A stretch of DNA of 22,637 bases from a virus (IMGVR_UViG_3300028888_000071:1-22637), one strand, 5' to 3'; shown: positions 8,893-22,637, counted from the stretch's first letter. The notes: generated from the letters alone by a model not told the origin. Numbers and translations: made by a program.

Positions 8893-9258
8893 ATGGGCAG
8901 AAAAAGAAGTAGCAATTACATCGATCCAAAAGAGTTTTACGATGAAATGGTGATTTCATTAGAAAAAGATGAACTGACACCAAAAGCGATAGAATTCTGC
9001 AGACTTCTCATTGAACGAGTCAGCAGATGCAACCACTATGATTCTCCTGAAGATGCTGAAGACTGCAAGTCACATGCAATGTTCAACATACTAAGATATT
9101 GGAGAAACTTCAACCCTGAGAAATATGACAACCCGTTCAATTATTTCACAAGCTATGCTTGGACAGGGCTTGCTCAGGGATGGAACACTCTGCATCCAGA
9201 AAAAGAAAGAGACTTTGTCAAGATTCCAATTCAGAACTTTGATGAAACGCAAAAATAA
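8893..9258 (+). CDS. gp55: Late-transcription sigma factor (T4 gp55-like), compact
   Basis: The N-terminal NYID and the segment WRNFNPEKYDNPFNYFT match the gp55 hallmarks NYVNNK and HNFDETKYKNPHAYIT. TATAAATA boxes elsewhere in the window support the call. Confidence 0.85.
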   Translation: MGRKRSSNYIDPKEFYDEMVISLEKDELTPKAIEFCRLLIERVSRCNHYDSPEDAEDCKSHAMFNILRYWRNFNPEKYDNPFNYFTSYAWTGLAQGWNTLHPEKERDFVKIPIQNFDETQK

Positions 9259-9262
9259 AAAC

Positions 9263-9733
9263 ATGAACATCATTAAGTCATATGATGAATTTGTCAATGA
9301 AGACACAATGAGTCCAACTAAAGATGAACATAAGCTGGACAGAGTTGTGCTCGGAAAAGAAAATATTGGCGGCGCTTACTGCTGCACAAACATAGGTGTC
9401 GCTGACATGTTTTTGTATATAATGCCAAAGCTAAAAGAATGTTTTGACAGTGAAATACTGCAGCTATCAAATAGTCCAAAATATTCAAATGAACTATCTC
9501 CCGCAGCAGTTAACTTTTATGGAAGTGATGGGAAGCTGATTGCGACTTATAACAGAGAAGTCATGATAAAAAGACCATTCAGATATGGCCCATTCCAAGA
9601 CAACATCAACTATATTGACACCATTATGCACAATGTGATAATTTTTGGTGATAGTTGTGATAAAGATTTGTTTGTTGATAAATGCAAAGATTTAAGCAAT
9701 GGCACAGTTGATTTCTATAAAAATTTTGGATGA
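9263..9733 (+). CDS. Hypothetical protein with a capsid-targeting-like N-terminus (possible internal head protein)
   Basis: The start is reassigned to ATG 9263, 4 nt after the gp55 stop. The N-terminus MNIIKSYDEFVNE resembles T4 IPIII MKTYQEFIAE. Confidence 0.65.
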   Translation: MNIIKSYDEFVNEDTMSPTKDEHKLDRVVLGKENIGGAYCCTNIGVADMFLYIMPKLKECFDSEILQLSNSPKYSNELSPAAVNFYGSDGKLIATYNREVMIKRPFRYGPFQDNINYIDTIMHNVIIFGDSCDKDLFVDKCKDLSNGTVDFYKNFG

Positions 9734-12248: not shown

Positions 12249-14087
12249 ATGGCGGACACTTATTTAGACATGTTCAACCCGTATTCTAACATATGGGAAG
12301 TTTCGGGAACCACCACGCCGATGTGGACTTGGAAGTACAGTCTTGACAAAAAAGGCCAGATCTATGCAGGCGACACATACGGTGTTCCAAGCGAAACTGA
12401 TAAAGACAAAGAAGAAGTCGTCAATTCCACTTCTTATGATGTGCGCACCCAGAAACTGTATGCGCCGTTCAGCCAGTTCTCGCGTTGGCAGATGCTAGAC
12501 TACTGTGGCATAAACGGCGTCATCTATAGTGGAGACAGACAAGTCGTGAACCGTTATTTCGACAATTCACTTGCTCGTTCTGGCGAATTGTGGTCGACTA
12601 TAGAGCCGTCATATGCAAACATCATTGACGTGTTCAAAGACATAAATGCTGGAAGATACAGGATACAGGACTTCATCTACAACAAGTATTTCAAGATGAT
12701 TCCGCCAAACTATCTAATCACACTGAGAAGATACGGCATGCCCTGCACAGACGCGCCGTTCACCCTTGCTTATCCTGAAGAACTGCATAAAGAAATAAAC
12801 TCTCGTTCTGCACTTGTTCCTATGGCGACTGCTACGACATACATGTCAGAACTTGCGGGAAACAAGATGGATGACATCCTCAAGTTCACTTGGGGACTCA
12901 ACTTCTCAGAAAAGACAAGTGAGATCCAGACAATATCATCAGGTACTCCAGGCGCTTCAAGTTTCGGCGTAGGACAATGGCTGTCTAATGCTGCGCAAGC
13001 TGCAGGCAATGGCAACTCGAATCTTGGCACAGCATTCAAAGGCGGTTTCGCGATGTCAGGCTTCAACTTCTTAGCAAGCACGAACCTCAACCCGCAGAAA
13101 GCTGCTGTTGCTGCTCAATACGCGTCAGTTGATCCGTGGGCAAAATATGGAAAATTCACACAAGGACCCGTTGACGTAATCATGAAGACGAAAATACGTG
13201 ACCAAGGCATCAACTTTTCTAATGACTTCAACTTGAAGTTCGAATATGAGCTGAAGTCATTGCAGTACGTCAACCCTAAAATCGCGATGTTAGACATCAT
13301 CGGAAACATGCTCACGATGTCGACAAACACTGGCACATTCTGGGGTGGCGCCACAAGATACTACGGGAATGGCGGCGGATACGGAAAGCAGCCAGGAGAC
13401 CTCGATGCTTTCGCAAAAGGCGACTATGCGACATATGCGAAAAGCCTCGTAGATCATGTGACGGACCAAGTGAAAGCGATGAATGGCGGCGGGTGGCCAA
13501 AAGATCTTGAAGACTGGATAAATCTGGCAAAACAGATATTCAAAGGCGGGCTCAACAACATGCTTGGGGGACTGATAAACGGAAACCTTGGCAAGCTCGG
13601 CTTCACTCAGCCAGCAAATGCTCTGCTCAATGATGAGCCAACTGGATACTGGCACGTTACAATCGGCAACCCGTTGAACCCAATCGTCATGATGGGCAAC
13701 ATGATCTGTTCAGACATGGAGATGACGATGGGCGAAGGACTCGGATATGACGACTTCCCCGTGAATGTCGCTTTCACGTGCAAGATATCTCACGGCAAGC
13801 CAAGAGACAGTGCTGGAATAGAAGCATTGTTCAACGCGGGCAAGGGAAGATACATGCACACGCCGTTCCTTGCTGAGATAAAAGACCTTCCACCTGAAAT
13901 GCAGCAAGAGATACAAGCAATCATGGAAAACATGAATCATGCTGACCCTATGAATGTCGACCGCAACCGTGGCTTGAAGAACACGACAGCAAACTATGGG
14001 ACAGGAAAGAAGTTCAGTGATCCCAAGACAAGTTTCCAGAAGAATCTGTACACTCAAATAGACAATGTCATTGCTTTGATAAGATAG
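12249..14087 (+). CDS. Probable baseplate or tail-tube junction protein (gp48/gp54-like, tentative)
   Basis: 612 aa with a late promoter and a Gly/Asn-rich middle. The segments FNLKFEYELKS..NPKIAMLDII and IVMMGNMICSDMEM..FPVNVAFTCKI resemble the two beta-rich blocks of tail-tube-fold baseplate proteins. Confidence 0.45.
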   Translation: MADTYLDMFNPYSNIWEVSGTTTPMWTWKYSLDKKGQIYAGDTYGVPSETDKDKEEVVNSTSYDVRTQKLYAPFSQFSRWQMLDYCGINGVIYSGDRQVVNRYFDNSLARSGELWSTIEPSYANIIDVFKDINAGRYRIQDFIYNKYFKMIPPNYLITLRRYGMPCTDAPFTLAYPEELHKEINSRSALVPMATATTYMSELAGNKMDDILKFTWGLNFSEKTSEIQTISSGTPGASSFGVGQWLSNAAQAAGNGNSNLGTAFKGGFAMSGFNFLASTNLNPQKAAVAAQYASVDPWAKYGKFTQGPVDVIMKTKIRDQGINFSNDFNLKFEYELKSLQYVNPKIAMLDIIGNMLTMSTNTGTFWGGATRYYGNGGGYGKQPGDLDAFAKGDYATYAKSLVDHVTDQVKAMNGGGWPKDLEDWINLAKQIFKGGLNNMLGGLINGNLGKLGFTQPANALLNDEPTGYWHVTIGNPLNPIVMMGNMICSDMEMTMGEGLGYDDFPVNVAFTCKISHGKPRDSAGIEALFNAGKGRYMHTPFLAEIKDLPPEMQQEIQAIMENMNHADPMNVDRNRGLKNTTANYGTGKKFSDPKTSFQKNLYTQIDNVIALIR

Positions 14088-17493: not shown

Positions 17494-17518
17494 TTTCAAT
17501 CTGCTGTATTTGTTTATG

Positions 17519-17554
17519 AAAGCTTGGAGATCTGTTAATTTCCAAGCTTTTTTT
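17519..17554 (+). terminator. Rho-independent terminator
   Basis: A 10-bp stem, AAAGCTTGGA / TCCAAGCTTT, is followed by a T tract and lies downstream of the thioredoxin gene. Confidence 0.85.
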
Positions 17555-17590
17555 ATTATTTTATATTGTCTAATATATAATTGATGCAAT

Positions 17591-18931
17591 ATGAATATCG
17601 CAATTGGGAAGGTTGGCAAAGCAGTCAATTTCAAGCAGAAAGAAGGATTCAAACTGAATGTCGGCACAGACAGCGCTGTCGTGTTCATGTCGCTTCTCGC
17701 AAGAATGAATCCCGACTACAAGTTCTATCTCATTGGACCGAATGACTTGCCAAAACTTAATGCGAAAGAATACGAGACATATTTCCCTGACAAGAACATG
17801 TTCAGTGTGTTTGAATACCACAAAGAAGCTGATGAACCATACCGGTACATATGTGACAATTTAGACAAGATTGGAGTCAAAATTGACTTCGGGATTTTCA
17901 TGCTTGGTGTCGTCACTATGATGTCAGTTCCTAAATTCTTGAAGAAAGAAGATGGCACTTACTGCAATTTGCTGCAGTCTGCTGAAAAATATGGCGGACC
18001 TTATGTTGATTTTCTAAACAGGTCAAACATACCCTGGTACATTGTTTCTGAAGACGCACGATACATCACATTGAACTCAAAAGACTTGTTGAACATGCCA
18101 AGAATGAGTCTCACTCAGATAAATGGGGTGTTCAACTCTGGTGCTCACATACAAGACAAAGATGACATCGTCATACATCACCCGCATAATTGGAAATATG
18201 TCCCGATAACAGCAAAGTACTGTCATATAGAGAAGATGTTTCTCAATGGAGTGTCGCCAAATTTTAGAGACAATATTGACATTAAACGGAAACTAAAGTC
18301 AAAAGATCATCATCTAGTCATTCTGTCAAACGGGCATGGCATTGTTGAAATCAATAGTCCATACAAGTCATCTGACCGTTTGGACACTTATGTGAAATGG
18401 ATAAACGATTTGAAGGGAACAAGATACGAAGACACTATGATTTATGGCAAATGGGACGATGATGTTGCTGCGCAATATGATTTCATTGAGCAGAGAATGA
18501 TTCCTGACTTGAAAGAAGAAATCGCAGACGCAAAATACTCATTCGTCTATTCTGTTGCTTCAGGTTTCGTCACAATCAAGCCATATGAAATGATAACGCT
18601 TGGACTCATACCATTCTTGCATCCTGATTACGATCCAAAGCGCCTTCTTAAATTCCCAGACTTCTTGTATGTAAAAGACGCGAATGATTTAGTGAAGAAG
18701 ATGGAATATCTTGATGCCAATGATGACAAATACAAGAAACTGCTGGATGTATGTTTCAGTTTGATAAAGCCAGAATATCTTGACGGCCGTCTTGTGAACA
18801 ACGAGATATTCACGACTATTGCAGATGACTTGGGATTTGGATATGTGCCAAAGGAGAATGGCGTAAAGAATGTGATTGACAGACTTGATGGTTTTAATTC
18901 AACGAGCAAAAAAGTTCTAAAACTATTCTAA
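17591..18931 (+). CDS. GT-B glycosyltransferase, T4 DNA beta-glucosyltransferase-like (copy 1)
   Basis: MNIAIGKVG resembles BGT MKIAIINMG. SEDARY resembles FTDIRL (catalytic Asp100-x-Arg). FVTIKPYE resembles FITLRVWE (R269/E272). FLHPDYD..LYVKDANDL resembles LIDEEFD..FYVNNRAEL. Confidence 0.75.
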   Translation: MNIAIGKVGKAVNFKQKEGFKLNVGTDSAVVFMSLLARMNPDYKFYLIGPNDLPKLNAKEYETYFPDKNMFSVFEYHKEADEPYRYICDNLDKIGVKIDFGIFMLGVVTMMSVPKFLKKEDGTYCNLLQSAEKYGGPYVDFLNRSNIPWYIVSEDARYITLNSKDLLNMPRMSLTQINGVFNSGAHIQDKDDIVIHHPHNWKYVPITAKYCHIEKMFLNGVSPNFRDNIDIKRKLKSKDHHLVILSNGHGIVEINSPYKSSDRLDTYVKWINDLKGTRYEDTMIYGKWDDDVAAQYDFIEQRMIPDLKEEIADAKYSFVYSVASGFVTIKPYEMITLGLIPFLHPDYDPKRLLKFPDFLYVKDANDLVKKMEYLDANDDKYKKLLDVCFSLIKPEYLDGRLVNNEIFTTIADDLGFGYVPKENGVKNVIDRLDGFNSTSKKVLKLF

Positions 18932-18932
18932 T

Positions 18933-19721
18933 ATGAACAAATTGAATTTGCATGTTGTCATGCCAATGGCTGGTGAAGGGCAGCGGTTCAAGAAAGAGGG
19001 ATATGCTATAGCAAAACCATTGATTGAGATTGATGGCATGACTATTTACGAGAAAGCATTGTCAAGTCTTGATGATTTCTCCGCAAAGCATCCAGAATGC
19101 AATATAAGTCATACATTCATTGTGAGAGAAGAGTTCAAGGAAGACAATATTGGAGAAAAAATTCATTCTATTTTTCCTGATGCTAACATCATATATGTTG
19201 AAAAGACGACAAACGGTGCTCTTGAAACAAGTTATCTTGCTGTGCCATATATAAAAGATGACGAGGGCGTCATCCTGATGGACTGTGACATGTATTTCCA
19301 ATGCCAGTCTTTTGTCGAAACAGTGAAACAGCAACTTGCAACAGGCAACCCAAATCCATGTCTTCTAACTTTTGATGAGACAAATCCGAGATTCTCTTAT
19401 GTGTCTATCAATGAGAATGGATTCGCGAAAGAAGTGGTAGAAAAACAGCCAATTTCTAACAATGCGATTTTGGGCTGCTATTTTGCCGGATCTGGACATC
19501 TGTTCAAGACAATGACAGAAAAAGTCATAGAAGACTGGCATGACAAGAAAATAGAATCGAAAGAAATCTACACTTCACTGCTGTTCAATGTATATTCAAA
19601 AACCTGCAGCGTGAATGTCATCAAAATAGACGAAAGCAAAGGAGAGCACTATGTGTCAATGGGCACTCCTGAAGAATTTGAAAAAGCAAAAACATTTTTT
19701 AACAGTACATATACGATATGA
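18933..19721 (+). CDS. BcbE-like NTP-transferase / GT-A fold protein
   Basis: VVMPMAGEGQRFKKEGY..KPLIEIDG, TNGALET, ILMDCD, FSYV, VEKQPISNNAILGCY and YVSMGTPEE form the pattern of the GT2_BcbE-like sugar-nucleotidyltransferase family. Confidence 0.82.
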   Translation: MNKLNLHVVMPMAGEGQRFKKEGYAIAKPLIEIDGMTIYEKALSSLDDFSAKHPECNISHTFIVREEFKEDNIGEKIHSIFPDANIIYVEKTTNGALETSYLAVPYIKDDEGVILMDCDMYFQCQSFVETVKQQLATGNPNPCLLTFDETNPRFSYVSINENGFAKEVVEKQPISNNAILGCYFAGSGHLFKTMTEKVIEDWHDKKIESKEIYTSLLFNVYSKTCSVNVIKIDESKGEHYVSMGTPEEFEKAKTFFNSTYTI

Positions 19722-21091
19722 ATATACTAATAGGAAAAATAGGAAAGTCAGTAAAATTCAAGAATTTAGACATAATGTATGGCGATGACGCGCCAGCAGT
19801 GTTTTATTCTACAATGAGCAGAATACTTCCCGAGCACAATTTCTATTTTTGTGGGCCAAGTGATTTCAACAAGCTGACTCAGAAAGAAAGAGATTTTCTG
19901 TTTCCAAACAAGAATGTTTTTTCTTGTTTTAGAGATGGATATCCGCTTGATGAGAATGATCCTGAACTTGTAAGCTATGACTCTATTGTAGACTATCTTG
20001 AAGAGCAGGACATCAAGATTGATTTTGCTCTCATCTTCATTGGCTATTGCGGGAATCATGTGATTTGCAACTGCACTAAAAACCCGAAGACTGGAAAATA
20101 CTACATCATTTTGAATGCGTTCAAACGCTATGCAGGCCCATACGTCAACACGATAAACAAACTCGGCTGCCCGTTCTACACTATTGCAGAAGATGCGAGA
20201 TATCTTACAGTGAACACAGCAGAAATGTTCAACCGTGAACGATATGTTTTCACACAATGCACTGAAAGATATCTCACTCCCTTATATCCACATATAACAT
20301 CTTATGAAGACCACACCTTCATTACAGACAGTAAAGTCAAATGCGGATACGGTGGAGTTGAGAAAATTTTTATGATGGCGCTCAACAAGAATTGGAAAGA
20401 AAAAATCGACATTGAACGGAAACTCAACAACACGAAGAATCCGAAATGCATAGTCCTGTCAAACGGCCACGGAGCTAACAAACTCAACACTGGGGCTGTA
20501 GTCCATAATGCGAGGTTGAATGAATACAAAAAATATGTACTTGACAACTTCAAAGGAACAGAATTCGAGAACACGAAAATCTATGGCATATGGGACGATG
20601 AAATATATGAAAAGTATCCAATGATTCAGAAAAAGGGAATCATTGATTTGGACGATGAGATTGCTGACGCAAAATACACGTTTGTGTATTCAATCATTCC
20701 AGGATTTGTCACTGTCAAAGCTTATGAAATGATAACACTTGGACTCATACCGTTCTTGCACCCAGACTATGACAAAGACAATCTGCTGCAGTTGCCGAAG
20801 TTCTTGTACACGACAGGTCCTGATGATTTCTTGAAAAAGATAGAAGCACTTGAAAGACATCCGGACAAATACCAGCAACTTCTCAATAGATGTTTTGAGT
20901 GCATAAAACCAGAATATCTTGATGGAAGTTATTTGGTGAACAACATAATGTCAAAGATTGCTGATGACTTGGAATTTGAATATGAACCGCACAAGGGAGT
21001 TGAAGCAATTTTGGACCATTTCAACAAGAATATAGTAAATCCAACTGAATCTAAGAAAACTAATAATCCACCTGTAAAAAAATTATTCTAA
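19718..21091 (+). CDS. GT-B glycosyltransferase, T4 DNA beta-glucosyltransferase-like (copy 2, paralog of 17591..18931)
   Basis: It has the same BGT-like motifs (AEDARY, FVTVKAYE) and shares long identical blocks with copy 1 (SNGHG, EIADAKY, YEMITLGLIPFLHPDYD, IKPEYLDG). Confidence 0.75.
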   Translation: MNILIGKIGKSVKFKNLDIMYGDDAPAVFYSTMSRILPEHNFYFCGPSDFNKLTQKERDFLFPNKNVFSCFRDGYPLDENDPELVSYDSIVDYLEEQDIKIDFALIFIGYCGNHVICNCTKNPKTGKYYIILNAFKRYAGPYVNTINKLGCPFYTIAEDARYLTVNTAEMFNRERYVFTQCTERYLTPLYPHITSYEDHTFITDSKVKCGYGGVEKIFMMALNKNWKEKIDIERKLNNTKNPKCIVLSNGHGANKLNTGAVVHNARLNEYKKYVLDNFKGTEFENTKIYGIWDDEIYEKYPMIQKKGIIDLDDEIADAKYTFVYSIIPGFVTVKAYEMITLGLIPFLHPDYDKDNLLQLPKFLYTTGPDDFLKKIEALERHPDKYQQLLNRCFECIKPEYLDGSYLVNNIMSKIADDLEFEYEPHKGVEAILDHFNKNIVNPTESKKTNNPPVKKLF

Positions 21092-21092
21092 T

Positions 21093-21521
21093 ATGGAAAA
21101 TAAAGTATATGAGACAAAGGGCTGTCCGAACAAACTTGTCATCGATTTAGATGACACTCTGTCTTATACGATAAATGGTGATTACGAAAACAGCAAACCA
21201 ATCTGGCCAGTCATTGAAAGATTAAAAGAATACAAGCAGAAAGGATTCCAAATTGTAATCTATTCAAGTCGGCAGATGAGAACTTACAACGGACAAATTG
21301 GACTAATCAACATTCATACATTGCCGAACATCATTGATTGGCTAAAAAAGAATGATGTTCCGTTTGATGAGATAATTGTCGGCAAACCCTGGTGTGGATT
21401 TGATGGGTGGTATATTGATGACAAAGCAATTCGTCCATCAGAGTTTTTAGACATGTCTCAAGAGGAGATTGAAAACTTGCTCGCAAAAGAAAAACAACAT
21501 AATAGAAGTTTAGCAAAATGA
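21093..21521 (+). CDS. BcbF/EcbF-like HAD-IIIC phosphatase (capsule-biosynthesis phosphatase family)
   Basis: HAD motif I is VIDLDDT, motif II is YSSRQMRTY and motif IV is YIDDKAIRPSEF. The family signature is IHTLP..IIDWL..VPFDEIIVGKPWCG. Confidence 0.9.
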   Translation: MENKVYETKGCPNKLVIDLDDTLSYTINGDYENSKPIWPVIERLKEYKQKGFQIVIYSSRQMRTYNGQIGLINIHTLPNIIDWLKKNDVPFDEIIVGKPWCGFDGWYIDDKAIRPSEFLDMSQEEIENLLAKEKQHNRSLAK

Positions 21522-22637
21522 TACTTATAAATTCAGCAGCTTACATAAACTCGGATCTTGTTTCTGAATTTGGCAAATTGCCGCCAGCACTGTTGCCGGT
21601 CCAGAACAAGAGACTATATGAACATCAAGCAGAATTGTTGAAAACTAAATGGCCAAATGAAGTCATTTATATGACATTCCCGCAAAGCTATTCTTCGGAA
21701 ATGTCAGAATATGACAAAATAAAACTGAATGAACTTGGAATTGCTCCAATCTACATCCAAGATGATCTAAATCTTGGTCAAGCTATTGTCTATACACTCA
21801 ATTGCCTTGGAAAGTATGACGAAAATCTCATAATGCTGCATGGCGACACATTGTTTGATGAGTTGTTTGTCGATTCTGATGGATTTTCTTGTTCTGACTA
21901 TATTGATGACAACTATCACTGGGATAAGCTAAATGATAAAGTAAACACAATATTTACTGGATATTTTATCATAAACAGCCAGTATGAGTATATACGGCAG
22001 TTGACTGTGTGCAATTATGATTTCATAAAAGCCACAATCAACTATATGAAAGTCCCTGATGCAAAAGCAGTTCATCTCAAAGGATGGAAAGATTTCGGGC
22101 ACATAAACACATATTACCGTTCTATTTCTAAAATGACTACTGAGCGTTCTTTCAACTCACTCAAAGTTGTCAAGAACTGCATAATGTGCAAGAGCAGCAC
22201 TGACTTCAACAAGATGGAAGCTGAGCAGAACTGGTTCAACACAATTCCAGAAGAACTGCAGTGCTACACTCCAAAGATGTACAACCATATAGAAATCGAC
22301 AAGCCCGCGGATAAGAAGCAGTACTGCATGGAGTATATGTATCTTCCGTCATTGGCAAACTTGTTTGTTTTTGGCAACAATCCAGCTTTTGTCTGGAAAG
22401 ACATAATCGGCGCATGCAAAGACTACATTGATGAAGAATATGTCCAAGCATCAACACCGTTCCACACTGAACAATGGAAAAGACATGACATTGTGTCACA
22501 AAACGACAAGATGTACTATAACAAGACGTTGAAACGTCTGAAAGACACGGACATTGACTTGCAGACAACATGGAAAATAAATGGTGTGGAAACTCCTTCC
22601 ATCCAAGAAATATTGACTGAATTGGACAATGACATCA
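21518..22637 (+). CDS. BcbG-like NTP-transferase / kinase-fold fusion (3' partial, missing from the ORF track)
   Basis: The ATG overlaps the phosphatase stop (ATGA) and the frame is open to the window end. Hand translation includes MILINSAAYINSDLVSEFGKLPPALLPVQNKRLYEHQ, LHGDTLF, WKDFGHINTYY, TTERSFN, KMEAEQNWF and EYMYLPSLANLFVFG. Confidence 0.85.
   Translation, partial: MILINSAAYINSDLVSEFGKLPPALLPVQNKRLYEHQAELLKTKWPNEVIYMTFPQSYSSEMSEYDKIKLNELGIAPIYIQDDLNLGQAIVYTLNCLGKYDENLIMLHGDTLFDELFVDSDGFSCSDYIDDNYHWDKLNDKVNTIFTGYFIINSQYEYIRQLTVCNYDFIKATINYMKVPDAKAVHLKGWKDFGHINTYYRSISKMTTERSFNSLKVVKNCIMCKSSTDFNKMEAEQNWFNTIPEELQCYTPKMYNHIEIDKPADKKQYCMEYMYLPSLANLFVFGNNPAFVWKDIIGACKDYIDEEYVQASTPFHTEQWKRHDIVSQNDKMYYNKTLKRLKDTDIDLQTTWKINGVETPSIQEILTELDNDI

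Follow-up and report, generated by a model that had tools for sequence, protein, structure and literature searches.

The operon located at the end of a 22,637-nucleotide stretch of viral DNA (IMGVR_UViG_3300028888_000071:1-22637, referred to below as the window) raises the question of what its glycosyltransferases (GTs), encoded side by side with genes for the supply of an activated sugar, glycosylate and with which sugar. The window spans bases 1 to 22,637 of an IMG/VR viral contig that is 121,629 bases long, and the numbering of both is identical. The contig, which belongs to a huge uncultivated rumen phage and apparently derives from a sheep gut metagenome, has been estimated with CheckV at 38% of the genome, and the missing part of about 62% defines the scope of every contig-wide negative result reported here. 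Comparison of the region with the GenBank phages by megablast gave zero matches. We propose that the locus is probably a phage DNA-hypermodification (DNA-glycosylation) island and that its three GTs are, as judged by profile and structure comparisons, remote homologs of the T4 DNA beta-glucosyltransferase (BGT). The features observed here are the fold, the homology, the conserved catalytic residues, the operon coupling, the phage-restricted distribution and the conserved neighbourhoods; DNA as the acceptor, 5-hydroxymethylcytosine (5hmC) as the base, the order in which the GTs act and the sugar itself are what we infer.

The operon consists of at least seven tightly coupled genes in the order GT1, NT262, GT2, HAD, NTK526, GT3 and a gene for a C5-cytosine DNA methyltransferase-like (C5-MT-like) protein, of which the last two lie past the end of the window, on the contig. 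The genes are joined by 1-nt gaps (TAAtATG) or ATGA overlaps, and this arrangement continues through GT3 and the C5-MT-like gene. The preliminary description of the window had listed five genes, two of them for GTs, joined in this manner directly after a terminator. All five open reading frames (ORFs) were recovered on the plus strand at the coordinates below, the mode of joining was borne out at the junctions read and a hairpin with a T-run does lie just ahead of GT1; the gene count was too low, as the operon is longer and contains three paralogous GTs. The elements are as follows.

17518..17551, plus strand: terminator-like hairpin with T-run, closing the upstream unit (one site versus 0.4 expected in shuffled sequences, consensus scan)
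17539-17567, plus strand: AT-rich promoter-like stretch upstream of GT1
17591..18931, plus strand: GT1, 446 amino acids (aa), T4 BGT-like GT of the GT-B fold, candidate DNA glycosyltransferase; Asp155 (predicted catalytic), R263, K330, E333
18933..19721, plus strand: NT262, 262 aa, predicted stand-alone sugar-1-phosphate nucleotidylyltransferase with an AGEGQRF loop; BcbE-like by its place in the triad
19718..21091, plus strand: GT2, 457 aa, paralog of GT1
21093..21521, plus strand: HAD phosphatase, 142 aa, EcbF-BcbF / AfhF family
21518..22637 in the window, ending at contig position 23098 (L002:519-2099), plus strand: NTK526, 526 aa, fusion of a nucleotidyltransferase (NTase) fold and an APH/choline-kinase fold
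contig 23100-24350, plus strand: GT3, 416 aa, third, divergent BGT-like paralog
contig 24350-25639, plus strand: C5-MT-like protein, 430 aa (PF00145, E 7.6e-19), overlapping the GT3 stop codon

For GT1 and GT2 no Pfam or PHROG match was found and nothing usable in NCBIfam. Profiles were built from an alignment of a close set of 51 homologs (the close profile) and from a diverse set of 68 homologs sharing 22-45% identity, and the sole significant match of the family profile in the PDB was T4 BGT (E 1.4e-4 with the close profile; E 1.6e-7, covering T4 residues 86-333, when the 68-sequence profile was used with hmmsearch). In hhalign the 68-sequence profile was matched to T4 BGT with 92.9% probability; the close profile, set against the single T4 BGT sequence, aligned at the C-terminal motif alone, and the broader profile was needed. 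When the AlphaFold model of GT1 (predicted local distance difference test, pLDDT, 91.4) was compared with the PDB by Foldseek, the top six matches were T4 BGT, with BshA and other GT4 enzymes ranking next, and in structure comparison T4 BGT scored 4-5 Z units over every surface-glycan GT. The choice between T4 BGT and the GT4 enzymes of lipopolysaccharide (LPS) or capsule synthesis, raised in the preliminary description, thus fell to T4 BGT for the GT1 model. T4 BGT (CAZy GT63; PDB 1bgt/1j39), with its GT-B fold of two Rossmann domains, is the closest solved structure, whereas the GTs described here are 14-15% identical to it, about 95 residues longer and not matched by PF09198.

The same description had read equivalents of the D100-x-R and R269/E272 residues of T4 BGT in both GTs, within the motifs SEDARY/AEDARY and GFVTIKPYE/GFVTVKAYE of GT1/GT2. 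Profile alignment recovered them, pairing D155, R157, R263, K330 and E333 of GT1 with D100, R102, R195, R269 and E272 of T4 BGT, respectively. In the T4 enzyme we take Asp100 to be the catalytic base and R195, R269 and E272 to be phosphate/ribose ligands. The only invariant columns in the alignment of the 68 homologs are D155, G286 and K330. GT2 carries the same D, R, K and E positions as GT1; GT3 retains the catalytic Asp position, R263 and K330 and has Ser at the positions of R102 and E272, which fits a different donor. The family is a remote sister lineage of T4 BGT, lying outside the Pfam T4-Gluco-transf model. GT1 and GT2 are 41% identical overall (BLASTP E 4e-111), with 35% identity in the N-domain and 52% in the C-domain. 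GT-B enzymes generally bind their donor through the C-terminal domain and their acceptor through the N-terminal one, and the pattern of identity between GT1 and GT2 fits one type of donor and different acceptors, e.g. the base and the sugar already attached to it.

The distribution of the family points in the same direction as its fold. Counted as clusters at 50% identity (E<=1e-3) the family comprises 721 clusters, and among 185,579 species genomes of cellular organisms it was found in four, all of them rumen or goat-gut metagenome-assembled genomes; two of the four contigs concerned are 400-410 kb long and one of these two shares its record with a viral contig. The GT family is essentially confined to phages, being encoded on huge ruminant-gut phage contigs, on other uncultivated viral contigs and, more distantly, in Enterococcus phages. 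The neighbours of the family are DNA-metabolism genes, namely C5-MT, gp42-like, deoxycytidine monophosphate (dCMP) deaminase, TET-associated glycosyltransferase (TAGT, PF20691) and helicase; for the counts given below, ORFs were clustered across 28 loci that carry the family. TAGT adjoins the BGT-like GT in the megaphage relatives L003 and L004 (442-kb contigs) and in L037. It was also observed that the islands of these three loci carry HAD_2 and EcKL/APH kinase genes and that each island contains two unrelated DNA-GT folds.

The base to be glycosylated is indicated by the relatives. A ThyA homolog is encoded near the GT family in 14 of the 28 loci, and PF00303 was matched in 14 of the 16 whole viral contigs of relatives that were searched, two of these 16 being 97-98% complete. 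It has been reported that the signature of 5-hydroxycytosine (5hodCMP) synthases is D169N and that the N177 position determines substrate specificity (PMC13326640). The ThyA homologs beside the GT family share the active-site strings of T4 gp42, with D169 kept and Asp at the N177 position, and D169N was seen, among the compared ThyA homologs, in the DLP3 control only. As they keep D169 instead of D169N, these proteins are predicted to be dCMP hydroxymethylases and not synthases of 5-hydroxycytosine (5hoC). In cultured Enterococcus phages of the genus Denvervirus the genes for a ThyA-like protein, dUTPase, HAD, NTase/kinase and the GT homolog stand in a row. By analogy with these relatives the acceptor base in the phage studied here is probably 5hmC; a dCMP deaminase is encoded on its contig. 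Among the cultured phages, the 86-kb Denvervirus Planchet (L001, OX422066.1, 52199-57148) has a nucleotide kinase, a ThyA-like protein (D169, Asp177), dUTPase and a GT1 homolog; in its record the HAD protein is labelled 'polynucleotide kinase' and the NTase/kinase 'glycosyltransferase', annotations which look wrong.

The second question is that of the sugar. The HAD protein scores 189.3 bits against TIGR01689 (EcbF-BcbF; trusted cut-off 162), which confirms the BcbF-like member of the triad of donor genes named in the preliminary description. It matches PDB 1xpj (E 9.7e-47) and the 'capsule biosynthesis protein' of phage HY126 (9iqw, E 5e-10) and is 28% identical (E 3e-12) to gp81 of DLP3, an AfhF-type phosphatase. 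NT262 matches phrog_3980 (E 4e-43) and PDB 4evw (E 6e-5); its matches to Pfam NTP_transf_3 and NTP_transferase are slightly below the curated cut-offs and those to NCBIfam sugar-1-phosphate NTases are weak. Homologs of NT262 adjoin NTase/kinase genes in phiRSL1 and S-SKS1. NTK526, for which 1494 homologs were found, matches Pfam NTP_transferase and EcKL, and its AlphaFold2 model (pLDDT 88) matches both the sugar-1-phosphate NTase fold and the APH/FN3K fold; its kinase domain is 31% identical (E 2e-7) to gp82 of DLP3. On reading the sequences, the NTase domain of NTK526 appears without the GxGxR loop, whereas NT262 has the canonical AGEGQRF loop. Loss of the loop in NTK526 together with an intact NT262 would account for the presence of three genes here versus two in RB69-type phages.

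In the phages RB69, DLP3 and HY126 the AfhE/AfhF route has been described as leading from a sugar phosphate to a bisphosphate (kinase), then to sugar-1-phosphate (HAD) and finally to a nucleoside diphosphate (NDP) sugar (NTase), and in RB69-type phages several GTs build an arabinosyl oligosaccharide on 5hoC (Lee et al. 2026, PMC13326640). The cassette of the present phage resembles this route in having a HAD protein of the AfhF family and a fusion of NTase and APH-type kinase as in AfhE, and the same kinase, HAD and NTase logic may be expected to hold for it. None of the arabinose-5-phosphate isomerase (SIS), the D169N 5hodCMP synthase or GT4-type arabinosyltransferases was found in this cluster. 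A set of the same three genes stands side by side in a Bacteroidales UpxY/UpxZ capsule locus, where the HAD (61% identity), the NTase/kinase (49%) and the small NTase (23%) are adjacent; because these homologs sit together, the phage cassette looks captured from host capsule genes, apparently from those of Bacteroidales. In contrast to capsular polysaccharide loci, the genes are here interspersed with those for BGT-like GTs, and their surroundings are a DNA-metabolism region of a phage. The type B capsule of Pasteurella multocida has been reported to depend on BcbE and BcbG for its fructose side chain (PMC13552107). The precedents would allow fructofuranose, arabinofuranose or heptose as the sugar. 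As to the proposal of the preliminary description that a non-glucose activated sugar is put on a modified DNA base, its core, BGT-like DNA glycosyltransferases supplied by a phage-encoded pathway for an activated sugar other than glucose, held up in the checks which that description had set, the acceptor base being deduced from the relatives only.

Comparison of the island maps shows a common core of a gp42-like gene, one or more GTs and a C5-MT-like gene, to which interchangeable donor modules are added:

module A: SIS, ribulose-phosphate 3-epimerase and a different NTase/kinase
module B: NT262, HAD and NTK526 (this phage, L012, L037, L043)
module C: NTase, HAD_2, EcKL kinase and TAGT
no module: ThyA-GT-C5MT trio alone (several short viral contigs)

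In the closest relatives (L033 and L034) GT1 is 68-75%, GT2 62% and the C5-MT 66% identical to the proteins of this phage, yet module A replaces module B. Both modules occur in L012 together with a GT3-type enzyme and a gp42-like gene, and there the GT3 ortholog travels with the NTK526/NT262 module. From these maps the sugar-supply genes are seen to behave as swappable cassettes. On about ten short viral contigs (L019-L030) a gp42-like ThyA homolog, a BGT-like GT and a C5-MT-like gene were noted as a bare trio, free of sugar-activation genes.

On the proposed pathway, a gp42-like dCMP hydroxymethylase would make 5-hydroxymethylcytosine before replication, and the GT paralogs would flip out the hydroxylated pyrimidine and transfer to it a sugar from an NDP-sugar, with the invariant Asp (D155 in GT1) serving as the catalytic base. 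The paralogs might lengthen the first sugar to a di- or trisaccharide, or use differing donors. For the donor, the APH-type kinase domain of NTK526 would phosphorylate a host sugar phosphate at its anomeric position, the BcbF/AfhF-type HAD phosphatase would strip the distal phosphate and NT262 would join the sugar-1-phosphate to a nucleotide. Glycosylated in this way, the DNA of the phage would be shielded against cleavage by restriction enzymes and CRISPR nucleases. A more specific version, built on analogy with capsule synthesis and put forward with considerable doubt, is that the cassette makes an NDP-ketofuranose or another furanose (fructofuranose by the capsule analogy), that GT3, whose donor pocket looks altered, puts this sugar on 5hmC and GT1 and GT2 extend it, and that the C5-MT-like partner may do something other than plain methylation. 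If it were true, a furanose on 5hmC would be a DNA sugar never reported before.

Several results weigh against a DNA-glycosylation island. No match to PF09198 (T4-Gluco-transf) was found in the contig at E<=1. The base-hydroxylation gene, a ThyA homolog or TET, that the preliminary description had proposed to look for elsewhere in the genome was not found in the 121 kb: a ThyA homolog was absent from the 121.6-kb contig by PF00303 and by a custom gp42-like hidden Markov model (HMM) with filters off, as were TET/JBP, a SIS isomerase and a MazG dCTPase, and no ThyA homolog was found within 10 kb in the flanks of the closest relatives (L033, L034, L037 and L043). A Pfam scan of ten unannotated ORFs of the window revealed no hidden ThyA or oxygenase. 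The lack of ThyA on the contig neither backs nor refutes the 5hmC model, because 62% of the genome is missing. Furthermore, the nearest relatives of the cassette are encoded in bacterial capsule loci, so that a non-DNA acceptor is possible, and a C5 methyltransferase would be left without an obvious substrate if deoxycytidine were fully replaced before replication, which is hard to reconcile with the proposed pathway.

One alternative is a post-replicative route, modelled on the MT/5mYOX/GT clusters of Pyle et al., in which the C5-MT-like enzyme would methylate or derivatise cytosine in DNA, an oxidase would convert the product to 5hmC and the GTs would add the sugar. In its favour, the C5-MT-like gene shows translational coupling to the rest of the operon, and no other gene adjoins the GT family so regularly (24 of the 28 loci); it is kept even in loci with a T4 gp42-like dCMP hydroxymethylase. 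Its product has the motifs PVCSG (catalytic loop), ENA, QNRPR and GQNVP, and across 26 homologs the catalytic Cys, EN and QxRxR do not vary, so that it looks catalytically intact. Published subclass III clusters also join a C5-MT with BGT-like GT-B enzymes. Against this, Tet_JBP (PF12851) was unmatched in the contig and in all 16 contigs of relatives (0/16), a negative of unproven sensitivity as the model matched no control genome either, and the relatives hold gp42-like dCMP hydroxymethylases instead of an oxidase. We regard this route as unlikely. A second C5-cytosine-methyltransferase-like gene with a PVCSG loop was observed on the minus strand at contig 80546-81853, and such genes are also present in loci L008-L034.

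It is quite improbable that the GTs decorate non-DNA targets, i.e. proteins of the virion, intermediates of host capsule or LPS, or a small molecule, with a capsule-type sugar, for instance to change the host surface or to exclude superinfection. The origin of the cassette would suit such a role, whereas bacterial capsule loci do not contain the GT family itself, which, as described above, is nearly absent from prokaryote genomes, resembles T4 BGT and not the surface-glycan GTs, and is surrounded by DNA-metabolism genes; neither a signal peptide nor a membrane segment stood out in the sequences of the GTs or in the high-confidence, soluble model of GT1, no dedicated search having been run. That the acceptor is 5hoC, as in RB69 and DLP3, or 5-hydroxymethyluracil, and not 5hmC, is highly improbable: the homology of the HAD and NTase/kinase pair to AfhF/AfhE of the arabinosyl-5hoC pathway and the lack of a base-modifying enzyme on the available contig of this phage would allow it, whereas every ThyA homolog beside the GT family keeps D169, the Asp at the N177 position as in T4 gp42 speaks against deoxyuridine monophosphate, and the RB69-type arabinosyltransferases are GT4-like, not BGT-like.

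The preferred reading, a DNA-glycosylation island, can be set against the systems known so far. In comparison with T4, a single operon encodes three GT paralogs, the donor would be supplied by phage genes whereas T4 uses host UDP-glucose, and a conserved C5-MT-like partner is present, whereas a gp42 homolog was not found in the available contig. The subclass III enzymes GT53, GT66 and GT94 are GT-B proteins of 419-429 aa in which the catalytic Asp lies close to residue 152; they adjoin C5-MT and their top PDB match is T4 BGT (E 1e-6 to 1e-7); for contig 53 a HAD/APH enzyme and a nucleotidyltransferase have been shown to be required for heptosyl-5hmC, with the BGT-like GT-B reconstituted, and the matches of the GT-B HMM associate more with ThyS than with 5mYOX/TET (Pyle et al. 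2023, bioRxiv 10.1101/2023.12.21.572611). The present locus shares with these clusters a BGT-like GT-B adjoining a C5-MT, the likeness to GT53, GT66 and GT94 being one by description only. It differs from them in that they were chosen for a TET-type 5mYOX, none of which was found here or in the 16 contigs of relatives, and in its gene fusions, HAD-APH and a cytidine triphosphate (CTP) transferase in the published clusters versus a lone HAD, an NTase-kinase fusion and an extra NTase here. The preliminary description had presented the pairing of BGT-like GTs with a BcbE/F/G-like triad as a novelty; this was overstated, as both the clusters of Pyle et al. and the AfhF/AfhE logic precede it. As far as the compared sequences go, this locus stands out by its three GT63-like paralogs, its capsule-derived triad of BcbF type and the signs that cassettes are swapped.

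Some further features were noted around the operon. The 184-aa ORF after the C5-MT-like gene was considered as a small oxygenase and ruled out on account of its lipoprotein signal peptide. A small ORF with such a signal peptide (MKRILIALFSLFLFAC) is placed 3' of the C5-MT-like gene at contig 25654-26190 (L002:4637-5191), and the lipoprotein encoded there is probably unrelated to the operon. Right downstream of the island, at contig 26257-28404 (L002:5258-7405), a 715-aa protein with AAA+/ClpB-D2-like and peptidase M41 (FtsH-type) domains is encoded. Within the window, a 612-aa ORF (12249-14087) has no Pfam or PHROG match and lies in a region with a G+C content of 0.49 at 13-14 kb versus about 0.40 around it. 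A short ORF for a gp55-like late sigma factor (8893-9258; phrog_234, E 2e-9) overlaps a 202-aa ORF (9125-9733) in another frame by about 130 nt, and the overlap could reflect a frameshift, the presence of two separate genes or a start called wrongly. At 1608-2720, between the helicase and unannotated genes, the window encodes an M16 (insulinase/pitrilysin-type) peptidase-like protein.

DNA glycosylation is a major phage strategy against restriction enzymes and CRISPR nucleases, and the defences and laboratory enzymes that work on such DNA differ with every new sugar. By the relationships described here, the lineage of T4 BGT extends far wider than the T-even phages. The pairing of the GT with the C5-MT-like gene may hide a further step of the pathway, and the occurrence of the set beside a gp42-like gene in cultured Denvervirus phages makes the chemistry testable at the bench.

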